Made by a program: the position numbers and the translations under genes
In this document: positions 3,290-24,834 of the stretch, one piece after another
Numbering within the stretch: the first letter of the stretch is position 1
Layout of the letters: each line of letters begins with the position of its first letter
The notes under the pieces: model-generated
What the model saw: only the letters and a program-made list of their open reading frames with translations
What the model was told of the DNA's origin: nothing
Databases searched by the model: none
Source of the DNA: Lysobacterales bacterium
Lineage (GTDB): Bacteria; Pseudomonadota; Gammaproteobacteria; Xanthomonadales; SZUA-5
Assembly: GCA_022844165.1 (NCBI GenBank)
Contig: JALHMH010000054.1
Span: 1-24,951, forward strand
DNA length: 24,951 nucleotides
Direction of reading: 5' to 3'

Positions 3290-3449
3290 CTAGCACGTTG
3301 TTGAGAAACGCACTTCCTGTGCGCTTCTCAAGTCGCGAGTCCGGCACATGTCCGGACTCGCTCTCCATGGATCAAGCACTTACGTGCTCGATCCATGTGC
3401 GAACCATCCATGGTTCGCGCCCGCAGGCTGTTTCTCAACAGCCTGCTAG
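3290..3449. mobile_element. MITE-like element C (TIR-bounded, CTAG at both ends)
   Basis: CTAG at 3290-3293 and 3446-3449. 16-bp TIRs match 14/16 (CACGTTGTTGAGAAAC vs revcomp CAGGCTGTTGAGAAAC). Internal hairpins GCGAGTCCGG..CCGGACTCGC (3335-3361), CATGGATC..GATCCATG and GCGAACCA..TGGTTCGC. Only one copy in the window. Confidence 0.7.
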
Positions 3450-3682
3450 TGTGGTGTTCCGCAATGACCTTGAACTATTTCCGCGTCTTTCGACCCCATG
3501 CAGCGTTGCTTCTCGTCGCCATAGAAGAGCTATGTCGTCCGGCCCGGCGGCGCAGCCGCCGGTCGTTCAAGTCGGCTCGCGGCATGCCGCGAAAGCCACC
3601 GACTTTCACCCTCGTCGCGCCTTGCCTGACGCCGAAATCCATCGGAAATATTGTTCAACTTAGTTACGGAACACCACACTAG
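3446..3682. mobile_element. MITE-like element B, copy 1
   Basis: TIR CTAG-TGTGGTGTTCCG ... CGGAACACCACA-CTAG. Near-identical to 12303-12539. Confidence 0.85.
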
Positions 3683-3852
3683 CGAGGCTTCGCCTCAGAC
3701 CGCCGAGCATTGTTGCCTTCGCTCGGCAGCGCACTTGCCACAACCCCGCGCGCTTCGCGCGCGCCCTTGACTCAAGGGGGTTTCAAAAGCCAAAGCCGCT
3801 TCGTAGAAAATTTGACTCATTTGTCGAGATCAGTCTCCGTCAAGGACTCTAG
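3679..3852 (-). repeat. Repeat element A (short form, reverse orientation)
   Basis: Reverse complement reads CTAG-AGTCCTTGACGG ... GAAGCCTCG-CTAG. Shares CTAG 3679-3682 with element B. Confidence 0.85.
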
Positions 3853-5998: not shown

Positions 5999-6027
5999 GA
6001 TGATCAGCGATCGATGGGGAAGAACGT

Positions 6028-6269
6028 CTAGAGTCCTTGAGGGAGCCGGACCTTGTCAATTGAGTTGAATTTTTTCGAAGCGGCTTTGGCTTTGGCAGCC
6101 CCTTAAGTTATGGGGGGGGTGAGACTCGACGCTGACACGCCGCAGGCGTGTGTCGAGTCGAACGCCAGCGGCTGCGCCGCTGGGCCGGAAATCCGAAGCG
6201 CGGGTTGTGGTCAGTGCGGTGTCGAACGAAGCCAACAGTGCTCAACGGCCTTAGGCCAAGCCTCGCCAG
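6028..6269 (+). repeat. Repeat element A (long form containing module D at 6123-6189), diverged
   Basis: CTAG-AGTCCTTGA at 6028 and AAGCCTCG-CCAG ending at 6269. Overlaps the last codons of the epimerase gene. Confidence 0.8.
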
Positions 6270-8262: not shown

Positions 8263-9373
8263 TGTTCAGTTGGGCGACCGCGCCTACCCCATTTTGATTG
8301 GCACGGACCTGCTGCGCGTGACCGGGCATCTGCGCGAAGCGATCGCCGGGAAACAGGTTTTGATCCTCACCGATGAGAATGTCGCACCGCTTTACTTGCA
8401 GGCCGTGCTGGCGGCATTGGATGGACTGAGAACTTCCACCGTCACGATCGCAGCAGGCGAAGCATCGAAGACACTCGCGAATGCGGAGCGCGTTTTCGAT
8501 GCGTTGGCGGCGCTCGGTGCGCAGCGCAACGCTTGTTTGATTGCCCTCGGAGGGGGCGTTGTCGGCGACCTGGGCGGCTTTGCAGCCGCGCTTTGGATGC
8601 GTGGTATTGACTTCATACAGATCCCGACCACCCTGCTGGCAATGGTGGATTCATCCGTCGGTGGTAAGACTGCCGTCAACCTGGCACATGGCAAGAACCT
8701 CGTTGGCGCCTTCTGGCAGCCACGCCGAGTCATCGCCGATATCGCAACTTTATCGACGTTGCCCGATCGCGAATATCGCGCCGGGCTGGCTGAAGTCGTG
8801 AAGTACGGCGCCATATGCGACGGCGCATTTCTCACATGGCTGGAGGACAACACCAACGCACTGAACGACCGTTCGACGAGCGCCATCGCTCACGCCGTGC
8901 TGCGTTCATGTCAGCACAAGGCGCAAATCGTCGCCCGCGACGAGCGCGAAACCGGCGAGCGCGCGCTGCTCAATTTCGGACATACCTTCGGTCATACGCT
9001 TGAGACCCTGGGGCGATATCAAACCTGGCTGCATGGTGAAGCGGTCGCCATCGGGATGACCATGGCAGCACAGTTGTCGGCTCACCTGGGCATGGCACCT
9101 CAAGGGGATGCGCAACGCCTTGCTACCCTCTTGAGGCAATTCGGGCTACCAACCACCGCAAGCGAGTCGGCACATTCGATTGTGGAGTTGATGCGCCTGG
9201 ACAAAAAAACGCTGTCCGACGTGCTCCGCCTGATCCTCTGGCGTGGTGTTGGACGCGCCGAGATCGTGGAGAATGTCGCCCCAGCGGACATCATTGCTTC
9301 CTTGCAAAATGCAGCAAATGGTCCTGCGGTACCCGCATCCGCAACAACGCTTTTCTCTAGAGTCCTTGACTGA
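8252..9373 (+). CDS. aroB: 3-dehydroquinate synthase
   Basis: ALGGGVVGD, PTTLLAMVDSSVGGKT, LLNFGHTFGH and LHGEAV. ATG at 8252 after GGAG. Confidence 0.97.
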   Translation: MRLDVQLGDRAYPILIGTDLLRVTGHLREAIAGKQVLILTDENVAPLYLQAVLAALDGLRTSTVTIAAGEASKTLANAERVFDALAALGAQRNACLIALGGGVVGDLGGFAAALWMRGIDFIQIPTTLLAMVDSSVGGKTAVNLAHGKNLVGAFWQPRRVIADIATLSTLPDREYRAGLAEVVKYGAICDGAFLTWLEDNTNALNDRSTSAIAHAVLRSCQHKAQIVARDERETGERALLNFGHTFGHTLETLGRYQTWLHGEAVAIGMTMAAQLSAHLGMAPQGDAQRLATLLRQFGLPTTASESAHSIVELMRLDKKTLSDVLRLILWRGVGRAEIVENVAPADIIASLQNAANGPAVPASATTLFSRVLD

Positions 9374-9612
9374 GCGGGATCTTGTCAATTGAGTCAAATT
9401 TTCGTCGGAGCGGCTTTGGCTGTTGAAGCCCCCTTGAGTACAAGGGGGGTGAGGATCGGCGCTGACACGCCGCTAGGCGTGTGCCGAGCCGAACGACCGG
9501 CGGCTGTGCCGCCGGGCCGGAAATGAGCGCGCAGCGCTCAATGGGGGTTTTGGCAAGTACGGTGTCTGGCGAAGCCAACAATGCTCGGCGTTCTGAGGCG
9601 AAGCCTCGCTGG
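9357..9612 (+). repeat. Repeat element A (long form containing module D at 9453-9521)
   Basis: CTAG-AGTCCTTGAC at 9357 and GAAGCCTCG-CTGG ending at 9612. Overlaps the last codons of aroB. Confidence 0.88.
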
Positions 9613-9732
9613 TTCTCGGGCAGCACAATAACCTGGAATGAAGAAGCAGGCCTCCGTCGATTTGCCGAACTCGGGTAGGATGGCCGGGGTATGCTTGCGA
9701 TGCAGCTACGCCTTCCACAATCAACGTTGACC

Positions 9733-10011
9733 ATGCGCATTTACATGCAAGCCCTCTCCAGCGGAGCCGAACCGCAGCGTTACTGCCAACTGATCTTGCA
9801 ACAAGATCTGCTGGGCGGCTGGACGTTGATTCGTGAAATGGGCCAGCCAGGCACTCGCGCAACGGTTAAGCGCGAGCAGTACCTGGAACTGGATGCGGCC
9901 CAGTCGGCGCTGATGAAGGCACGCGACCAGCAAATGAAGAAGGGATTCAAAGTGATGTTCAGTCAGGGCGCTGACGAACCGCACAGCGGGGTGCAGCATG
10001 GGTATGACTGA
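9733..10011 (+). CDS. WGR domain protein
   Basis: RYCQLILQQDLLGGWTLIREMGQPG ... KKGF pattern of single-domain WGR proteins, located between aroB and hemE. Confidence 0.8.
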   Translation: MRIYMQALSSGAEPQRYCQLILQQDLLGGWTLIREMGQPGTRATVKREQYLELDAAQSALMKARDQQMKKGFKVMFSQGADEPHSGVQHGYD

Positions 10012-10966
10012 ATTAATGATGGCGTTGGCTTTGACCTTGAACGCCGAAAAATCGGTATGCGTACCGAATGCAACTGGCGACGGATGGGATTGCGGAAAGG
10101 GCGAAACCGCGCCAGCGCCGCGGCCATTGCCGGCAACCGTACCGTCACGCGAAGCCACCCGTCCACCGCTGTACTTGATGAACCCGGATCAAATGCCGCA
10201 GCTGGTCCGCGAATCGATCGAACGTGGCGACTATGCGACAGCCGAAGCCGCCAGCGAACGCCTGCCCCCTCCACCGCCGATCCGCGCTGGCGAACCAGCC
10301 GTCGTCGATGGCAGCGCGGCAACAGCACCAGAGGTGCCATCAGCGGACCCGGTGATGAGCGCATCGAGCGATACCGCAGATCCGCCGGACAATCTTGGGA
10401 TGGAAGAGCCGGCTGCAGCGCCCTCTGAAGCTGAGGCAGCCGGAGAACGTCACAAGGAAAGCGCGGCCCTAGCCGATGAGGCGCACCCACCGACAAACGA
10501 TACGAGCGGCGATCAGCCAGCTGCGGTTTCCGTTACGCAGACAGATCCCGGCGATGCAACGCCGGCGGTCGGTTCTGCAGGCGCTGCGCCACAGGCAGAA
10601 GAACCCGGCGTACGGCCAGATCCCGATCGACCCACACGTAGTATCAGTAGCACCGCGCTGGGCGCAGACGACTTGCTGGCACTGCCAGCAGACCATTACA
10701 CGGTACAACTGACGGCAGCGCGCAGCTTGAGGGGATTCACCGAACTGCGTCAGACACTGCAACTCGCTGTGGAAGACACTTTTGTCGTACAGGTCAAACG
10801 CAACGGCGAAGATTGGTGGCTGATGTTGTGGCGTTCGTTCCCGGATGTCGACAGTGCCCGCAACGCAGCCGCAACCATTAGCACCCAGGCGCTGTGGCCT
10901 CGCCGCCTCGGACCCGTACAAACCGAAGTCCGTGCCGCCAAGGGCCAGGGCTCGGGACCGGCTTAG
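9998..10966 (+). CDS. SPOR-domain protein (DamX-like C-terminus), exported
   Basis: Hydrophobic N-terminus, Pro/Ala/acidic linker, and C-terminal HYTVQL...W..RSFPDVDSARNAA...WPR..GPVQ resembling the DamX SPOR domain. Start at 9998 or 10004. Confidence 0.75.
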   Translation: MGMTELMMALALTLNAEKSVCVPNATGDGWDCGKGETAPAPRPLPATVPSREATRPPLYLMNPDQMPQLVRESIERGDYATAEAASERLPPPPPIRAGEPAVVDGSAATAPEVPSADPVMSASSDTADPPDNLGMEEPAAAPSEAEAAGERHKESAALADEAHPPTNDTSGDQPAAVSVTQTDPGDATPAVGSAGAAPQAEEPGVRPDPDRPTRSISSTALGADDLLALPADHYTVQLTAARSLRGFTELRQTLQLAVEDTFVVQVKRNGEDWWLMLWRSFPDVDSARNAAATISTQALWPRRLGPVQTEVRAAKGQGSGPA

Positions 10967-11071: not shown

Positions 11072-12124
11072 ATGAACGAACTTTTGCATCGAGCCAGCGG
11101 CCGACATAATCGCTTCCTGCGCGCGCTGAAGCGCCTGCCGGTTGACACAACTCCAGTCTGGATCATGCGCCAGGCAGGCCGATATCTACCCGAGTACCGC
11201 GCCACACGCGAACGGGCGGGCAGCTTCATGAACTTGTGCCGTTCGCCAGAGCTCGCCTGCGAAGTCACCATGCAACCGATCGATCGATTCGATCTCGATG
11301 CGGCGATTCTGTTTTCGGATATTTTGACCATCCCTGACGCGATGGGCCTTGGACTGGACTTCGTCGAAGGCGAAGGCCCGCGATTCGCCCGGCCCATTCG
11401 GTCGGTGGACGCGATCAATGACCTGCGCGTACCAGATCCGCTGACCTCGCTACGTTACGTGCCAGACGCCGTACGCACCATTCGCAACGCGCTTGGTGGG
11501 CGCGTGCCATTGATCGGATTTGCCGGCAGCCCGTGGACCTTGGCCTGCTACATGGTAGAAGGTGGACCGAGTGAGCGTTTCGCACACATCAAACAACTGA
11601 TGTGGGACCGGCCAGAGGCGCTGACCCGCCTGCTTCGAGTGCTGACCGATAGTGTTCGCGAGTACCTGTTGGCGCAAGCCGATGCCGGTGCTCAGGTCCT
11701 GATGTTGTTCGATTCCTGGGGCGGCATTCTGGCGCCGGAAGACTATCGGCGATTCTCATTGCCGTCGCTGGCCGAACTCGCAGCGTCGTTGCGACGCGAC
11801 GACTTGCCAGTGATCGTGTTCAGCCGCGGCGCCAACACGCATTTAGATGCGCTTTCCCAGGTGGGTGCAGACGCACTCGGCCTCGATTGGTCGATTGGCT
11901 TAGGCGACGCACGCCGACAAACTCAAGATCGAATTGCACTGCAAGGCAACCTTGATCCTGCAGCTCTGTACGCCTCACCGGAGGCGCTTCGAAACCTGGT
12001 GAGACGTACTTTGTTCGACTACGGCATAGGATCTGGCCACATCTTCAACCTGGGCCACGGTATTACACCCGACGTGAATCCCGAACAGGTGCGCGTGCTG
12101 GTCGAAACGGTACATGGCGCTTAG
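11072..12124 (+). CDS. hemE: Uroporphyrinogen decarboxylase
   Basis: PVWIMRQAGRYLPEY, FSDIL, GFAGSPWTLACY, LQGNLDP and HIFNLGHGI. Confidence 0.98.
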   Translation: MNELLHRASGRHNRFLRALKRLPVDTTPVWIMRQAGRYLPEYRATRERAGSFMNLCRSPELACEVTMQPIDRFDLDAAILFSDILTIPDAMGLGLDFVEGEGPRFARPIRSVDAINDLRVPDPLTSLRYVPDAVRTIRNALGGRVPLIGFAGSPWTLACYMVEGGPSERFAHIKQLMWDRPEALTRLLRVLTDSVREYLLAQADAGAQVLMLFDSWGGILAPEDYRRFSLPSLAELAASLRRDDLPVIVFSRGANTHLDALSQVGADALGLDWSIGLGDARRQTQDRIALQGNLDPAALYASPEALRNLVRRTLFDYGIGSGHIFNLGHGITPDVNPEQVRVLVETVHGA

Positions 12125-12306
12125 CTAGAGTCCTTGACGGAGCCGGATCTTGTCAATTGAGTCTGTTTCTTCGGAGCGGCTTTGGCTTTGGCAGCCCCCT
12201 TAAATTAAGGGGGCGATTGAGCGCGCAGCGCTCGATGGGGGTTGTGGCAAGTACGCTGTCTGGCGAAGCCAACAATGCTCGGCGGTCTGAGGCGAAGCCT
12301 CGCTAG
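12125..12306 (+). repeat. Repeat element A (short form)
   Basis: CTAG-AGTCCTTGACGG immediately after the hemE stop. Ends GAAGCCTCG-CTAG at 12303-12306, shared with element B. Confidence 0.9.
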
Positions 12307-12539
12307 TGTGGTGTTCCGTCATTACCTTGAACGATTTCCGCGTCTTTCGACCCCATGCAGCGTTGCTTCTCGTCGCCATAGAAGAGCTATGTCGTCCGGC
12401 CCGGCGGCGCAGCCGCCGGTCGTTCAAGTCGGCTCGCGGCATGCCGCGAAAGCCACCGACTTTCACCCTCGTCGCGCCTTGCCTGACGCCGAAATCCGTC
12501 GGAAATATTGTTCAACTTAATGACGGAACACCACACCAG
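12303..12539. mobile_element. MITE-like element B, copy 2
   Basis: 18-bp perfect TIR TGTGGTGTTCCGTCATTA (12307-12324 / 12518-12535), bounded by CTAG and CCAG. Interior nearly identical to 3446-3682. Confidence 0.85.
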
Positions 12540-12602
12540 CCGCTCATTGCGCCCAAAAGCGAGCGCGAAGTGCGCTGCCGGATTTCGCTTCGTGTTCGAG
12601 GC

Positions 12603-13037
12603 TCAAAAGGTCTTATGAGCGCGATGCGATTCGCCGGGAACGCGCGCACGTCCTGCAGCGGTTGGTTCGCCGATGCCTGTCAGCCGTTCGAGATCGGGCT
12701 TTGAAAAGCCGTTGATCCGAACCGTACCGAACACGAAAGTCGGCACGATATCAACGCCTAACTGGCGAGCGAGCTGGCGCGACAGAGGCGAGGTGTCGAT
12801 CGTCTTTTCAACGTAATCGATGCCCAGCCCGTCCAGCCATGTTCGGGCGTCGGCGCACACCCGGCAGGTGGAGGTTGCAAAGACCACTAACTTGTCGCCC
12901 CGCACCAGCCCCTGCGCGACATGCTCGACAACTGGCCGAGCGTTCTGGGCGCGCCAAGCCTGACTTGCGATCACGCCCATCATGCTGGCAAACGCGGCGA
13001 CGCCGACATACAGCAATAAATCTCTACGCCAACCCAT
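12603..13037 (-). CDS. Membrane-anchored glutaredoxin/NrdH-like thiol-disulfide oxidoreductase
   Basis: N-terminal hydrophobic helix, then LVVFATSTCRVC (CxxC), cis-Pro VPT and INGF. GGAG RBS. Confidence 0.85.
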   Translation of the reverse strand: MGWRRDLLLYVGVAAFASMMGVIASQAWRAQNARPVVEHVAQGLVRGDKLVVFATSTCRVCADARTWLDGLGIDYVEKTIDTSPLSRQLARQLGVDIVPTFVFGTVRINGFSKPDLERLTGIGEPTAAGRARVPGESHRAHKTF

Positions 13038-13277: not shown

Positions 13278-13408
13278 TTTCTTATCTCCAATACGGGGAA
13301 TCGCGAGTGCGAAATGCCGCACTCACATGAGTCACTCGCCAGCCCAGAGAATTTTCGATCACGGCAATCGGCGCAATGCCAGCAACATGCGATTCGTCAA
13401 CCCTACCC

Positions 13409-13508
13409 GAGGCGCTTCGAAACCTGGTGAAGCGTACGTAGTTCGACTAAGGCACAGGATCTGGCCGAATTTTCAACCTGCGCGTCGGGTCAAAACAGTG
13501 CATGGAGC
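13409..13508 (+). pseudogene. Decayed duplicate of the hemE 3' end
   Basis: 13409-13480 matches hemE 11981-12052 at 63/72 (first 22 bp identical). After a ~39-bp deletion the match resumes to 12092-12120. Two in-frame stops (TAG, TAA). Confidence 0.88.
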
Positions 13509-13551: not shown

Positions 13552-14772
13552 CTAGACCGCCGCGATAGCAGCCTCAAGCACTTGGTCGATACCAGATTGA
13601 ATCGCGACCCAGGATGGTCTCACCGGCAAATCGGGATCGAGGCCAGCAGCTCGCCCGCGCGGATCCCCGGGCGCCAGGAAGAAGCGCCGCGTGCTGTAGG
13701 TCATTCGTCGACCGCTCGGTAACAACGCCTGGCGCACTTCACCAAAGTGGTTCAGGGACGTGCCCGCCACCTCACCAACGACGATGGCGCGCACTTCCTC
13801 CCGCAACGAATAGGCATTGAGCATGGCCGACGATTGGGTTCGCGCATGGGTAATGACACGTAATGCACGTGGTACCGCCAACGCGCTGGTTTCAAGCAAT
13901 GCCTGATAAACCGGAAAAAACAACGACGAATCGCCGCCGCCATTGCCACGAAAGTCGATGACTGCACGCCGAGCACCGACAGCGCGGACGGCCGCTCGGA
14001 CCTGAGCGACGAAGGCAGAAACGCTCAGTTCCGGATCAGCAACACATCGACGATAGTGGATCGTCAGCGACTGATCCGCGGGTCTCTGGGCCAACACATA
14101 GTGCCGCTGAGGCAACTGCTCGAATGGCAACGCAGGCCGCATGCCAAAATCGACTTCCGTCAGCGTTGGAGCGGCATCGCCATAAGCGACGATAGAGGTC
14201 CGAAGGGCCTTGTTCAGACCCGCACTGCTGATGACGTCGACGTTGTTCTGACTACCGATGCCGAGCGAGAACAACACCGCGGCGCTCGCGCCAAGACTTG
14301 CGTCGAATAGCGCCTCAAATTCAGCCGCCAAGGGGTAGCCGGCAAAGCGTCGTGCCGCATCGCGAATGGCCTCCGGTGCCAGCCCGCCCAGACTGAGGAC
14401 GCGGCGTCCCAGCCAGAACTCGGCGCCGCGCGCCACGGCGGTAACAAACCAACCTTCGGCGAACTCGGTGAGTTTGAACGGCAGGCGTCTGACCAGCAGC
14501 TCCGGCGTTTGAATGCTCGTATGCAAATCGCCCACCGCGCCCGCCAACTGCTGAAATGCGAGCGCACCGCGGGTCAGATCAAAAGCAGCGTACTTCTCGG
14601 CGATCGCGGCAAGCGATTCGAGCTCGCTTCGTGTTCGAAGCTCGAAAGGGCTGACATGCGCGTTGAGAGTCGCCATAAACGCGCGCACATCCTGCTGCAG
14701 TTCGTTCGCCGACGCTTGTCGGTGCCAAAGCGTTGCCAGCATTCCTGCGGTGATGACCTGTCGTCGTTGCAT
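13552..14772 (-). CDS. S41-family-like peptidase with Tat signal
   Basis: MQRRQVI...ASA twin-arginine signal, GDLHT, IDFRGNGGG, RTQSSAM (putative catalytic Ser), IVVGE and LPSG. Confidence 0.78.
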   Translation of the reverse strand: MQRRQVITAGMLATLWHRQASANELQQDVRAFMATLNAHVSPFELRTRSELESLAAIAEKYAAFDLTRGALAFQQLAGAVGDLHTSIQTPELLVRRLPFKLTEFAEGWFVTAVARGAEFWLGRRVLSLGGLAPEAIRDAARRFAGYPLAAEFEALFDASLGASAAVLFSLGIGSQNNVDVISSAGLNKALRTSIVAYGDAAPTLTEVDFGMRPALPFEQLPQRHYVLAQRPADQSLTIHYRRCVADPELSVSAFVAQVRAAVRAVGARRAVIDFRGNGGGDSSLFFPVYQALLETSALAVPRALRVITHARTQSSAMLNAYSLREEVRAIVVGEVAGTSLNHFGEVRQALLPSGRRMTYSTRRFFLAPGDPRGRAAGLDPDLPVRPSWVAIQSGIDQVLEAAIAAV

Positions 14773-22087: not shown

Positions 22088-22166
22088 AAGAGATCCGAGA
22101 CAGCCACTCTTCGCCGCCATGAAGAGATCCGAGATGAAGAGATCCGAGACAGCCACTCTTCGCCGC
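22088..22166 (+). repeat. Fixed-start repeat array 1 upstream of RAYT-like gene
   Basis: Units begin AAGAGATCCGAGA at 22088 (34 bp), 22122 (15 bp) and 22137 (continues into the leader). Confidence 0.9.
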
Positions 22167-22228
22167 CATGGGCATTGGAATCCCGTAGCCACTTGGCGAT
22201 GCGGCGAAATGACCCCGTTCACATTCGC

Positions 22229-22246
22229 TGTCAGAAAATTCTGACA
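22229..22246. promoter_or_regulatory. Palindromic putative operator TGTCAGAA-AA-TTCTGACA
   Basis: Perfect 8-bp inverted repeat ~57 bp before the transposase start, repeated at 24640-24657. Confidence 0.5.
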
Positions 22247-22302
22247 CCACTTTCAGCGTACGCCCTACAGACAAGCTCAGCGGTCGTCGCAATGATCGCC
22301 GC

Positions 22303-23289
22303 CTGACTCAAGCCCGCCACCTCACTGTTGCCGAAGGCCAGCAAGGCCTCTATCACTGCGTCGCACGATGCGTGCGGCGCGCGTGGCTGTGCGGCGTGGA
22401 CCCGATCACCAAGGTCGACTACGAGCACCGCAAGCCAATGATCGCCTCGCGCATTGTTCAACTGGCGAGCATTTTTGCGGTCGATGTCTACAGCTACGCG
22501 GTGATGAGCAACCACCTGCACGTGGTGCTGTCGATTGAACCGACCGCCGCGCGCAATTGGTCTGATGAGGAAGTTGCCTGGCGCTGGGTGCAATTGTTCC
22601 CGGCGCGCGAGGCGGAGCAGAACACGGCGAAAATCAGAGCGCTGTGTGCAGACAAAGTCGCACTTAAGGTTCGCCGCGAGCGGCTCACGGATCTGTCCTG
22701 GTTCATGCGCTGTCTTGATGAGCACATCGCGCGCAAGGCGAACGCAGAAGATGACGTGACGGGGCGCTTCTGGGAAGGCCGATTCAAATCTCAGTTGCTT
22801 GACGACGAAGCCGCGCTCGCCGCGGCGATGGCGTACGTCGACCTCAATCCGGTTCGAGCCGGGATCGCCGACAGCATCGAGAGCAGCGATCACACCAGTG
22901 TGCAGGTGCGCGCCGGGGAACTGCGCAAAGATCCCAGCAAAGCGGACGAGCCGATCCAACCCATTGCCGGCGTTCGGCTTGGATTAGATATGTTGAAAGA
23001 CCAAGCCTTTGCCAGATTGGCGATGAGCAATCGCCAGTACATTGAGCTGGTCGACTACACCGGCCGCCAACTCAAGCCCGGCAAACGCGGCAAGATTGAT
23101 GAGCGCGAGCCGACGGCGTTAAGCAAACTCGGACTCGATGCCAACTACTGGACCGCGCACGTCAAAGGCGTCGGCTCAGGTTACTGGCGCTTCGTTGCCA
23201 GCGTTGAAGCACTCGAGGCCAAAGCCGCAGAGTGGAAACGGAAGTGGCTCAAAGGTATCGGCTATGCCCGGAGCCTTGTGACCGGCTGA
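22303..23289 (+). CDS. HUH/Y1 (IS200-superfamily, RAYT-like) transposase, CTG in place of ATG start
   Basis: YHCVARCVRRAWLCG, HUH motif VMSNHLHVVL, GRFWEGRFKS and catalytic Tyr in AYVDLNPVRA. The codon at 22303 is CTG where the second copy has ATG (24714). Confidence 0.88.
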   Translation: MTQARHLTVAEGQQGLYHCVARCVRRAWLCGVDPITKVDYEHRKPMIASRIVQLASIFAVDVYSYAVMSNHLHVVLSIEPTAARNWSDEEVAWRWVQLFPAREAEQNTAKIRALCADKVALKVRRERLTDLSWFMRCLDEHIARKANAEDDVTGRFWEGRFKSQLLDDEAALAAAMAYVDLNPVRAGIADSIESSDHTSVQVRAGELRKDPSKADEPIQPIAGVRLGLDMLKDQAFARLAMSNRQYIELVDYTGRQLKPGKRGKIDEREPTALSKLGLDANYWTAHVKGVGSGYWRFVASVEALEAKAAEWKRKWLKGIGYARSLVTG

Positions 23290-24434: not shown

Positions 24435-24577
24435 AAGAGATCCGAGACAGCCACTCTTCGCCGCAAGAGATCCGAGACAGCCACTCTTCGCCGCAAGAGA
24501 TCCGAGACAGCCACTCTTCGCCGCCATGGGCATTGGAATCCCGTCGCAAGAGATCCGAGACAGCCACTCTTCGCCGC
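24435..24577 (+). repeat. Fixed-start repeat array 2 upstream of second RAYT-like gene
   Basis: 30-bp unit AAGAGATCCGAGACAGCCACTCTTCGCCGC at 24435, 24465, 24495 (extended to 53 bp) and 24548. Confidence 0.93.
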
Positions 24578-24713
24578 CATGGGCATTGGAATCCCGTAGC
24601 CACTTGGCGAAGCGGCGAAATGACCCCGTTCACATTCGCTGTCAGAAAATTCTGACACCACTTTCAGCGTACGCCCTACAGACAAGCTCAGCGGTCGTCG
24701 CAATGATCGCCGC

Positions 24714-24834
24714 ATGACTCAAGCCCGCCACCTCACTGTTGCCGAAGGCCAGCAAGGCCTCTATCACTGCGTCGCACGATGCGTGCGGCGCGCGTGGCTG
24801 TGCGGCGTGGACCCGATCACCAAGGTCGACTACG
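24714..24834 (+). pseudogene. 5' fragment of second RAYT-like transposase, interrupted
   Basis: MTQARHLTVAEGQQGLYHCVARCVRRAWLCGVDPITKVDY. 24548-24834 differs from 22137-22423 at only two positions that I can see, and identity stops abruptly at 24834. Confidence 0.88.

Follow-up and report, generated by a model that had tools for sequence, protein, structure and literature searches.

Module D, a covarying hairpin repeat nested in other repeats of a Lysobacterales genome, as a candidate small mobile DNA with long target duplications

Small hairpin repeats such as REP sequences fill bacterial genomes, and the way in which most of them spread is unsettled. Here we describe module D, a hairpin unit of about 72 nt that occurs four times in a stretch of 24,951 nucleotides from a Lysobacterales bacterium (assembly GCA_022844165.1, contig JALHMH010000054.1, positions 1 to 24,951; this whole stretch is called the window below). 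The genome that holds the window, G000, comprises 4.68 Mb in 59 contigs with 60.5% G+C, the window being its contig C54. A sequence-only reading of the window, made without database searches, had proposed D as a minimal structure-defined mobile unit, or a structured RNA, that parasitizes other repeats and is possibly moved by an HUH enzyme. We find that the fold of D is under selection and that, where D is rare, it stands directly behind a duplicated piece of the gene it entered. Module D appears to be a previously undescribed small mobile hairpin DNA of the REP or MITE (miniature inverted-repeat transposable element) kind, with a footprint beyond the known mechanisms familiar to us.

The closest described systems are the REP, BIME and REPIN repeats with their RAYT transposases (PMC2817692) and the SMAG repeats of Stenotrophomonas (PMC2613905). 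According to the accessible parts of these two papers, they are, like D, abundant, intergenic, GC-rich hairpins found in the same order, in which a short fixed motif stands beside compensatorily varying stems and which form mosaic arrays; a REP, however, is a palindrome of 20-40 nt or an inverted doublet with a GT(A/G)G head, whereas D has about 72 nt, hairpins in direct order and a GTGA that pairs with GAAC. D flanks no RAYT gene, does not co-occur with one and leaves long target duplications, and we therefore do not place it among the REP/REPIN-RAYT systems. The hairpin MITEs of the IS200/IS605 group (PATEs) and IS608 resemble D in their structure-defined ends, entry 3' of a short fixed target and likely single-stranded DNA (ssDNA) substrate. 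Insertions of this type, made 3' of a tetranucleotide, leave no target duplication and need TnpA; D duplicates 16-141 nt and shows no link to Y1 genes. Nor is D a classical MITE of the DDE kind, as its ends are not inverted repeats and its duplications vary in length, although one of its hosts, the B element, does look like a MITE. Integrase-borne islands and prophages at tRNA and tmRNA genes likewise repeat a piece of the gene on both sides and keep the gene intact, leaving partial duplications (attL/attR). The D inserts, however, are 70-130 nt long, non-coding and without an integrase gene inside; their crossover lies at GG^AT (the caret marks the junction) in the D-loop or the antisense T-loop, the repeat varies in length, and the 5' part of the gene is repeated as often as the 3' part. 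Integron attC sites carry R''/L''-L'/R' boxes (RYYYAAC...GTTRRRY) and form cassette arrays with intI adjacent; the fixed motifs of D are unlike these boxes, by eye only and with no search made for intI. Finally, Ssn GIY-YIG nucleases are chromosomal enzymes that read hundreds of oriented NTS/SRM hairpin repeats on ssDNA, and these share with D their orientation and fixed non-palindromic flanks; as far as the accessible text of PMC11893778 goes, NTS are CGTC-tagged, about 30 nt long and flank ssnA, whereas the D motif is unlike theirs and D brackets no gene in a telling way, which sets D apart from them. In the literature on REP, RAYT, SMAG or tRNA-gene hairpin repeats with target duplications, supplements not covered, we found no published description of D. 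The accessible parts of PMC2817692, PMC2613905, PMC3733652 and PMC11893778 describe neither a D unit nor long target duplications for REP-like repeats, and the terms "duplication" and "target site" do not occur in that of PMC3733652.

The window is otherwise ordinary chromosome, with clpA, clpS, mnmA, pdxH, aroB, hemE and others. All four D copies claimed for it are there, with ends off by a few bases, and two of them do lie reversed inside both copies of the B element. In the lines below, bit scores refer to a covariance model, R2, and fold z-scores were taken against 200 dinucleotide shuffles.

6119-6189, + strand: D copy 1, GTGA...GGCCGGA, 82.4 bits, within an A-type repeat; H1 at about 6123-6159, H2 at about 6165-6183, the GG at 6117-6118 read as the end of the target
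9449-9521, + strand: D copy 2, 91.6 bits, fold z -4.55, within an A-type repeat, 3' of the 3-dehydroquinate synthase gene
3538-3609, - strand: D copy 3, 80.3 bits, fold z -3.59, within the B-type element 3445-3683
12395-12466, - strand: D copy 4, 80.3 bits, identical in sequence to copy 3, within the B-type element 12302-12540

With the preceding GG, the conserved unit GGGTGA...GGCCGGA spans 6117-6189(+), 9447-9521(+), 3538-3611(-) and 12395-12468(-). Its core measures about 70-75 nt and runs from GTGA through a first hairpin (H1), GAACG(A/C) and a second hairpin (H2) to the tail GGCCGGA, in agreement with the layout first read from the sequence, which ended in GCCGGA. H1 consists of an outer stem of about 8 bp, an asymmetric internal loop and an inner stem of 6-7 bp, and H2 of 8 bp with a triloop. 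A small third hairpin with a C-GNA-G loop often follows 3' of D; behind it many genomes have yet another hairpin, with KGGAY in the loop, which resembles the H2 of those copies and the target loops. As ssDNA the three distinct window copies fold to exactly the D layout, with z of -3.6, -4.6 and -3.6 (copy 1: -26.2 kcal/mol, z -3.56), and the opposite strands fold about equally well (z -3.1 to -4.4).

Between genomes the stems are wholly different, while GGGTGA(R), (Y)GAACG(M) and GGCCGGA are kept. When 39 copies from 9 genomes were aligned with MAFFT, blind to structure, 85.5% of the cells were paired, and sliding the 3' partners by 1-3 columns lowered this to 27-45%; double changes occur at 21 of the 24 pairs, and the observed covariation score was reached by none of 500 column shuffles. 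Likewise, in a second alignment, made from the 112 matches (105 distinct) that model R2 collected from the window and 99 loci of many genera, 91.7% of cells pair (27-43% when slid) and double changes occur at 24 of 24 pairs. The compensatory changes first seen among the window copies, and taken there to imply selection on a fold, are thus borne out in a larger alignment of 105 distinct copies: the D fold is under selection. GTGA and GAAC had been regarded as invariant linkers. They are indeed conserved, but they are paired with each other rather than unpaired: in the RNAalifold structure, two Watson-Crick pairs at the base of H1 link the G and T of GTGA to the C and A of GAAC. The T-A pair (T of GTGA, second A of GAAC) switches jointly to C-G in G000_C1, and the same switch is read in the printed sequences of L255, L263 and L265; in the second alignment C-G stands at this pair in 2 of the 105 rows. 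The two GA steps, one in GTGA and one in GAAC, then lie opposite each other, a geometry that would suit a tandem sheared G.A/A.G pair. Pairs of G.T type number 82 against 29 of A.C type, and because a single pair gives 37 of the 82, strand specificity is weak.

The most telling evidence for mobility comes from genomes in which D is rare. There a copy of about the first 19 bases of a tRNA gene, or of 24 bases of a tmRNA gene, immediately precedes D, and the intact gene follows some tens of bases downstream of D. Young insertions begin with U, a direct repeat of the upstream flank, followed by D and 0-58 additional nt, by the second copy U' and by the remainder of the gene; these duplications measure 16-141 nt overall. 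In nine of nine cases evaluated by script, U (19-76 nt) ends with the first two G of GGGTGA. At L251 the 68 nt of U are identical in 68 of 68 positions and the insert is D alone, L253 has a perfect 55-nt repeat (55/55), and at L263 the 29 nt of U are the start of the coding frame MRILVIGSGG. The native bases past the junction, available for 11 cases, give GG^AT in eight and GG^AC, GG^CA and GG^TA in one each. Sense D-loop sites are found in tRNA-Thr, tRNA-Gly and four times in tRNA-Arg, plus one tmRNA; antisense T-loop sites (...GG^ATTCGAAC) are found in tRNA-Ala, tRNA-Lys, tRNA-Ser, tRNA-Arg and a further tRNA-Ser. Other copies sit at the 3' end of one gene in two genera, which we take to be glnA from its translated tail and a motif known to us, and at the start of one coding frame. 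Of the nine class-level genomes with D that are not members of the order, five carry it at a tRNA site, where the duplications measure 16-141 nt, and in a sixth (L275) a 5' fragment resembling a tRNA precedes D; the other three show another context or one that could not be assigned. The shortest duplications are just as long as restoration of the gene requires, with 19 nt for a D-loop (L255) and 16 nt for a T-loop (L282). The 5' boundary of D is exact and the 3' boundary imprecise, the insert reaching 0-58 nt past GGCCGGA. The arrays in L253, L279, L280 and L283 fit repeated hits at one and the same regenerated site. The claim that D comes always after GGGTGA therefore splits in two: GTGA is the 5' end of D itself, pairing with GAAC and being there regardless of the upstream sequence, and GG is the end of the target and not part of D.

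D encodes no protein. We consider it probable, on balance, that D is a family of small non-coding, non-autonomous mobile hairpins that enters after GG by target-primed copying or template switching. D enters right after GG, mostly at GG^AT, in or at the foot of hairpin-forming sequence, be it the loop of a REP-like palindrome, another small repeat, the D-loop of a tRNA or tmRNA gene or an antisense T-loop. On a strand that has stalled or been nicked, the 3' end GG would pair with the CC opposite the start of a donor D, and the annealed end would prime copying of the donor from GTGA onward. Synthesis would quit the donor at or somewhat past GGCCGGA, and the new strand would re-anneal upstream in the target, a stretch of which would be replicated twice. 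Such a process would make duplications of many lengths, and at essential genes selection would retain only events whose duplication rebuilds the intact gene; in dispensable targets (REP loops, A, B) no long duplication need survive. We know of no HUH, DDE or integrase mechanism that predicts the footprint of D.

A question remains, does D exist apart from the repeats that carry it? In the window these repeats, with and without D, are the following.

6015-6269, + strand: A-type repeat with D copy 1, right end approximate (window repeat families D6, D7)
9344-9617, + strand: A-type repeat with D copy 2 (window repeat families D1, D3, D6, D7)
107-307, + strand: A-type repeat without D, the empty form (C54:172, 78-nt middle)
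12112-12311, + strand: A-type repeat without D (C54:12176), its CTAG end adjoining the B element 12302-12540
3445-3683, - strand: B-type element hosting D copy 3, MITE-like (window repeat family D4)
12302-12540, - strand: B-type element that carries D copy 4 (window repeat family D4; 97% to the B copy at 3445-3683)

Short A copies without the insert, reading ...GGGGGCGATTGAGCG, are present as claimed; the empty repeat at 107-307 reads ...GGGGG CGAT TGAGCGC..., as against GTGA..GGCCGGAAA in the D-bearing copies. Over the whole of G000 the A family counts 59 members with D, 68 without and 4 odd ones; in the B family 16 members carry D and 9 lack it, another 25 being truncated or cut off by a contig end. 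The absence of D-less B elements had been named as a point that would tell against a separate unit; they exist in G000 and in four related genomes (G016, G002, G008, G003), in which they match the D-bearing copies base for base on either side of the gap. At the B junctions, D-less copies read GAGGAG(A/G)A then G(A/T)CATAGC, and D-bearing copies GAGGAGG, D, C or ACCGGAG, and the same word. At the A junctions, D-less copies have CGAT or CGCG in place of the GTGA...GGCCGGAAA(TG) of D-bearing copies. In Stenotrophomonas, D is nested in another host element with inverted ends of about 26 nt. Here, at locus L121, contigs from 4 runs pass from position 140 to 223-227 by way of 2-6 other letters, in joints whose sides are only 18-23 nt long and which come from paralogous copies of a multicopy element rather than from proven alleles. 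The joints drop D and the small hairpin behind it, leaving a plain hairpin with the loop A(A/T/G)GGA(T/C), and D sits after the AAGG of that loop.

The B element ends in inverted repeats (GTGTGGTGTTCCG.../...CGGAACACCACAC) adjoining CTAG. Both window B copies abut the CTAG end of an A-type repeat, and A-repeat ends seem to be a preferred target of B; B is present with and without D across several genera. In the Stenotrophomonas loci L121, L141 and L156, stem-ATGGAT-stem hairpins are very abundant, with a word depth in the thousands in the contigs, and seem to form a REP-like family distinct from the published GTAG-headed SMAG.

In G000 a loose pattern (GGTGA-N35-50-GAACG-N15-26-GCCGGA) has 69 matches, against 1 for a backwards-read control. 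Two of the 69 were judged false, and an nhmmer profile built from the remaining copies gives 137 matches at E<1e-3, 104 of them near full length. They occur in A-type and B-type contexts, in a third flank type (C), at a few unique sites and in tandem arrays, and the view of D as a structure-defined unit independent of its hosts holds across all of these. Copies of the C type often comprise two to four tandem units, and tandem arrays of D-like units stand at the following places.

G000 C45:18302-18977: about ten units of 69 nt
G000 C13:87267-87660: four to five units of 73 nt
G001 C5:12975-13783: seven units about 124 nt apart

The internal units of the arrays start with ACTGA or lack the 5' part, and one array is broken by a run of N. 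No autonomous version of D came to light in G000: its 15 left-only and 8 right-only partial matches are truncated copies or contig ends, and no left-right pair encloses a gene. Genes between close D pairs are ordinary (alpha-amylase-like, Polyketide_cyc2 and Slp, and frames of 246 and 214 aa without a Pfam family); a 340-aa frame between inverted D copies (C1:305800-306822), also without a Pfam family, has the look of an outer-membrane protein. The more than 100 copies in G000 would have arisen mainly by D settling in A, B and C repeats and then riding along with them, and this would give the nested mosaic picture seen in the window.

The family is not confined to G000. Among close relatives the loose pattern and its backwards control give 44 and 0 matches in G001 and 20 and 0 in G002. 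Model R2 matches 36 of 149 genomes sampled from the order, at most 29 candidates being scored per genome, and these fall in 6 of 12 families (f1 10/15, f2 11/18, f4 10/17, f5 2/4, f9 1/15, f11 1/1), with no match in the sampled genomes of f3, f6, f7, f8, f10 and f12. In a class-wide sample R2 matches 11 of 151 genomes; 9 of these do not belong to the order and have 1-2 copies each. The search with a covariance model that had been suggested for related genomes therefore extends the D family to other genera and beyond the order. Pattern matches listed with both stems of at least 5 bp include Luteimonas, Stenotrophomonas, Lysobacter, Pseudoxanthomonas and Thermomonas and, among the matches listed, a few other proteobacterial metagenome-assembled genomes (MAGs). 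D corresponds to no Rfam family: a scan of the window with Rfam 15 gave no match on D at E up to 1, with two weak matches elsewhere, and a scan of 10 D-bearing loci of other genomes gave only the tRNA and tmRNA genes next to D and, away from D, weak matches due to chance. At L173, a locus of a Lysobacterales MAG, runs of the octamer CGAGGGCA flank one D copy, and different repeat families are again nested.

Several observations weigh against entry of D by target-primed copying. At the A and B sites, the contrast between D-bearing and D-less forms is the insert together with 2-4 substituted bases (CGAT, CGCG, AA/GA), and no duplication is visible; these forms could therefore also stem from deletion or from ancient events whose traces have faded. 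Every empty form is a paralogue or comes from a distant relative, with no orthologous pair from close strains among them. In G000 flanking repeats occur at few copies only, reflecting tandem arrays or neighboring A and B elements, and its unique-context copies show no flanking duplication; the evidence from duplications therefore comes from other genomes. A 5'-truncated D lies upstream of the L251 repeat and several loci are tandem arrays, which fits repeated insertion but also unequal crossing-over. The second alignment was fitted to R2 and is hence biased towards the structure of the model. No enzyme, donor or intermediate was found, and a search of G156 for the donor of the L253 insert gave only the adjacent tandem unit, which is partly masked. 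Moreover, plain template switching alone does not explain the order-wide fixity of GTGA, GAACG and GGCCGGA, as fixity of this kind usually means that a protein reads the motifs.

Given that last point, a dedicated structure-specific enzyme encoded elsewhere, be it a nuclease, a recombinase or a primase-polymerase, may cut and join D, an explanation that we hold to be unlikely and rank second only because no candidate emerged. Such an enzyme would read GTGA/GAAC and GGCCGGA on the folded strand and cleave hairpin loops at GG^AT; the long duplication would then result from another break, made upstream at a distance that varies, and from subsequent repair synthesis. It predicts the same footprint as target-primed copying and explains the conservation of the motifs better. 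The motifs are fixed and the stems free across the order and beyond, as with the REP heads read by RAYT (PMC2817692, in its accessible parts), the target is narrow, with GG^AT in 8 of 11 cases, and in many copies the H2 loop contains GGAT, like the target hairpins. Against this, neither Y1_Tnp nor the RAYT-like family discussed below tracks D, and no candidate appears among the ordinary genes between close D pairs. The single GIY-YIG match in G000 lies inside a 612-aa frame, which is taken to be UvrC by length alone; with an NTS motif unlike D, a nuclease of the Ssn type is unlikely.

If D functioned primarily as a structured RNA, be it a small RNA, an element of RNA processing or stability or an unrecognized ribozyme, and if this RNA were useful or copied back into DNA, the covariation with fixed junction nucleotides would be as expected for functional RNAs, and the 82 to 29 excess of G.T-type over A.C-type pairs, 37 of the 82 from one pair, would also fit. 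D-loop sites put D behind a duplicated tRNA start, at which the tRNA promoter would transcribe it. Target-primed reverse transcription makes long variable duplications, a footprint that fits those of D as well as the 5'-truncated copy at L251. We nevertheless regard this explanation as improbable. Of 118 D loci in G000 scored against a home-made gene call (3,480 genes, 86% of the genome), 7 lie in called frames and 16 at contig edges; of the other 95, co-directional gaps hold 21 in sense and 32 in antisense orientation, convergent gaps 23 and divergent gaps 19, close to the proportions of all gaps >80 nt, most scored copies riding in A or B. This lack of an orientation preference speaks against a strand-dependent role in transcripts and gives the structured-RNA alternative of the sequence-only reading no support. 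Both strands fold about alike, Rfam is blank on D at E up to 1, and the C-GNA-G triloop of the hairpin after D is typical of stable hairpins in DNA but not in RNA. A bias towards one replication strand did not emerge in G000 either (D sense on the G-rich strand in 25 loci and on the G-poor strand in 40; binomial p = 0.08, with 53 of the 118 loci unscorable). A hammerhead or k-turn reading of GTGA/GAA was rejected, as the core positions misfit by eye, there is no bulge and the Rfam scans are blank.

Mobilization by an HUH (Y1) transposase such as a RAYT, with D as a REP-like ssDNA element, had been proposed as possible before any search was made, and the gene that suggested it lies in the window.

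22303-23289, + strand: RAYT-like gene, tested as the mobilizer of D and not supported; not part of D

D does have the attributes of such a substrate, being defined by hairpins, with a short conserved 5' motif and entry after a fixed dinucleotide; Y1_Tnp genes are common in the order (105 of 149 genomes), and in G004 a D copy stands a few hundred bases from a copy of the RAYT-like gene. Yet Y1 transposition by "peel and paste" leaves no target duplication, and the young D insertions carry 16-141 nt. The head of D is GTGA and not GT(A/G)G, and its two unlike hairpins stand in direct order and not as an inverted doublet. The one clear Y1_Tnp gene of G000 (C48:21393-21728, E 1.7e-19) is flanked on both sides by a hairpin of its own, CCCAGGGC-N4-GCCCTGGG, with no D match on contig C48, and looks like part of a separate, ordinary RAYT/REP pair. 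Across the sample, Y1_Tnp occurs alike in families with and without D, and five of the 36 D-bearing genomes (G004, G032, G108, G126, G137) have no Y1_Tnp match, G108 being 100% complete. The RAYT-like family is present in 75 of the 149 genomes, with 15/15 in f1, 0/18 in f2, 16/17 in f7 and 16/17 in f10; it does not track D, because D occurs in 11/18 genomes of f2 and in 0/17 of both f7 and f10. There is no D near 22303-23289. With these duplications, no D at the Y1 gene and no co-occurrence, mobilization by an HUH enzyme is not borne out and must be called very improbable.

The protein encoded at 22303-23289 keeps the HxH motif and scores 21 bits with Y1_Tnp (E 3.9e-4, below the cut-off) and 40.6 bits with REP_Tyr_transpos (cut-off 80); its usual tyrosine region reads FWEGRFKS. 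Its family is multicopy, with at least 14 matches in G000, many of them 83-95% identical to each other. The gene is preceded by 30-nt tandem units (AAGAGATCCGAGACAGCCACTCTTCGCCGC; region 22088-22423), and a 287-nt stretch including its start recurs 2.4 kb downstream at 99% (24435-24834). The gene has the look of an independent multicopy element centered on a divergent HUH-type protein. The Y1 gene on C48 is also bracketed, within C48:21290-21900, by the repeated word CCTTTGGGA(T/C)TAGATTTCG.

Least probable of all is that D is immobile, an old internal part of A, B and similar repeats that has been lost from the D-less forms by deletion and is shared by recombination or gene conversion: D subtypes mostly follow the A subfamilies, D-bearing and D-less forms are set apart by a few base replacements instead of a clean insertion, and unique-context copies in G000 have no flanking duplications, but one D subtype occurs with different A left arms, the host element in Stenotrophomonas is quite different, and stand-alone copies at tRNA, tmRNA and protein-gene ends of unrelated genomes have perfect or near-perfect duplications marking recent entry.

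If entry by target-primed copying is taken beyond the single family, a wider and more tentative proposal follows. D may belong to a widespread undescribed class of hairpins, with no enzyme or with one not yet identified, that invades hairpin loops of the GG^AT type (tRNA D- and T-loops, tmRNA, REP and gene ends) by target-primed copying, its long variable duplications healing the gene that was hit, and the mosaic of the window may be the end state of repeats that colonize one another. If true, this would be a general mode of DNA mobility distinct from known transposition. The footprints of D are unusually clear, with a fixed 5' end, a narrow target in GG^AT hairpin loops and variable duplications that regenerate the gene, and they make it testable whether replication-linked copying alone can mobilize structured DNA. 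D accounts for the mosaic of repeats within repeats, and its covariance model lets annotators flag D, and the pseudo-tRNA stumps adjacent to it, in Lysobacterales and other Gammaproteobacteria.

Some minor features of the window lie apart from D. Upstream of the frame 9998-10966, positions 9815-9898 give a weak RAGATH-32-like Rfam match (23.8 bits against a gathering score of 41.8, E 0.12) that is probably due to chance. A direct repeat of 97 nt and 80% identity links 12585-12681 and 14624-14720. An 84-nt piece of the 3' part of hemE (11977-12060) recurs 1.4 kb downstream at 13405-13488 with 85% identity, past the A and B repeats and a glutaredoxin-like gene, and may be an old gene-end duplication left by repeat insertions.

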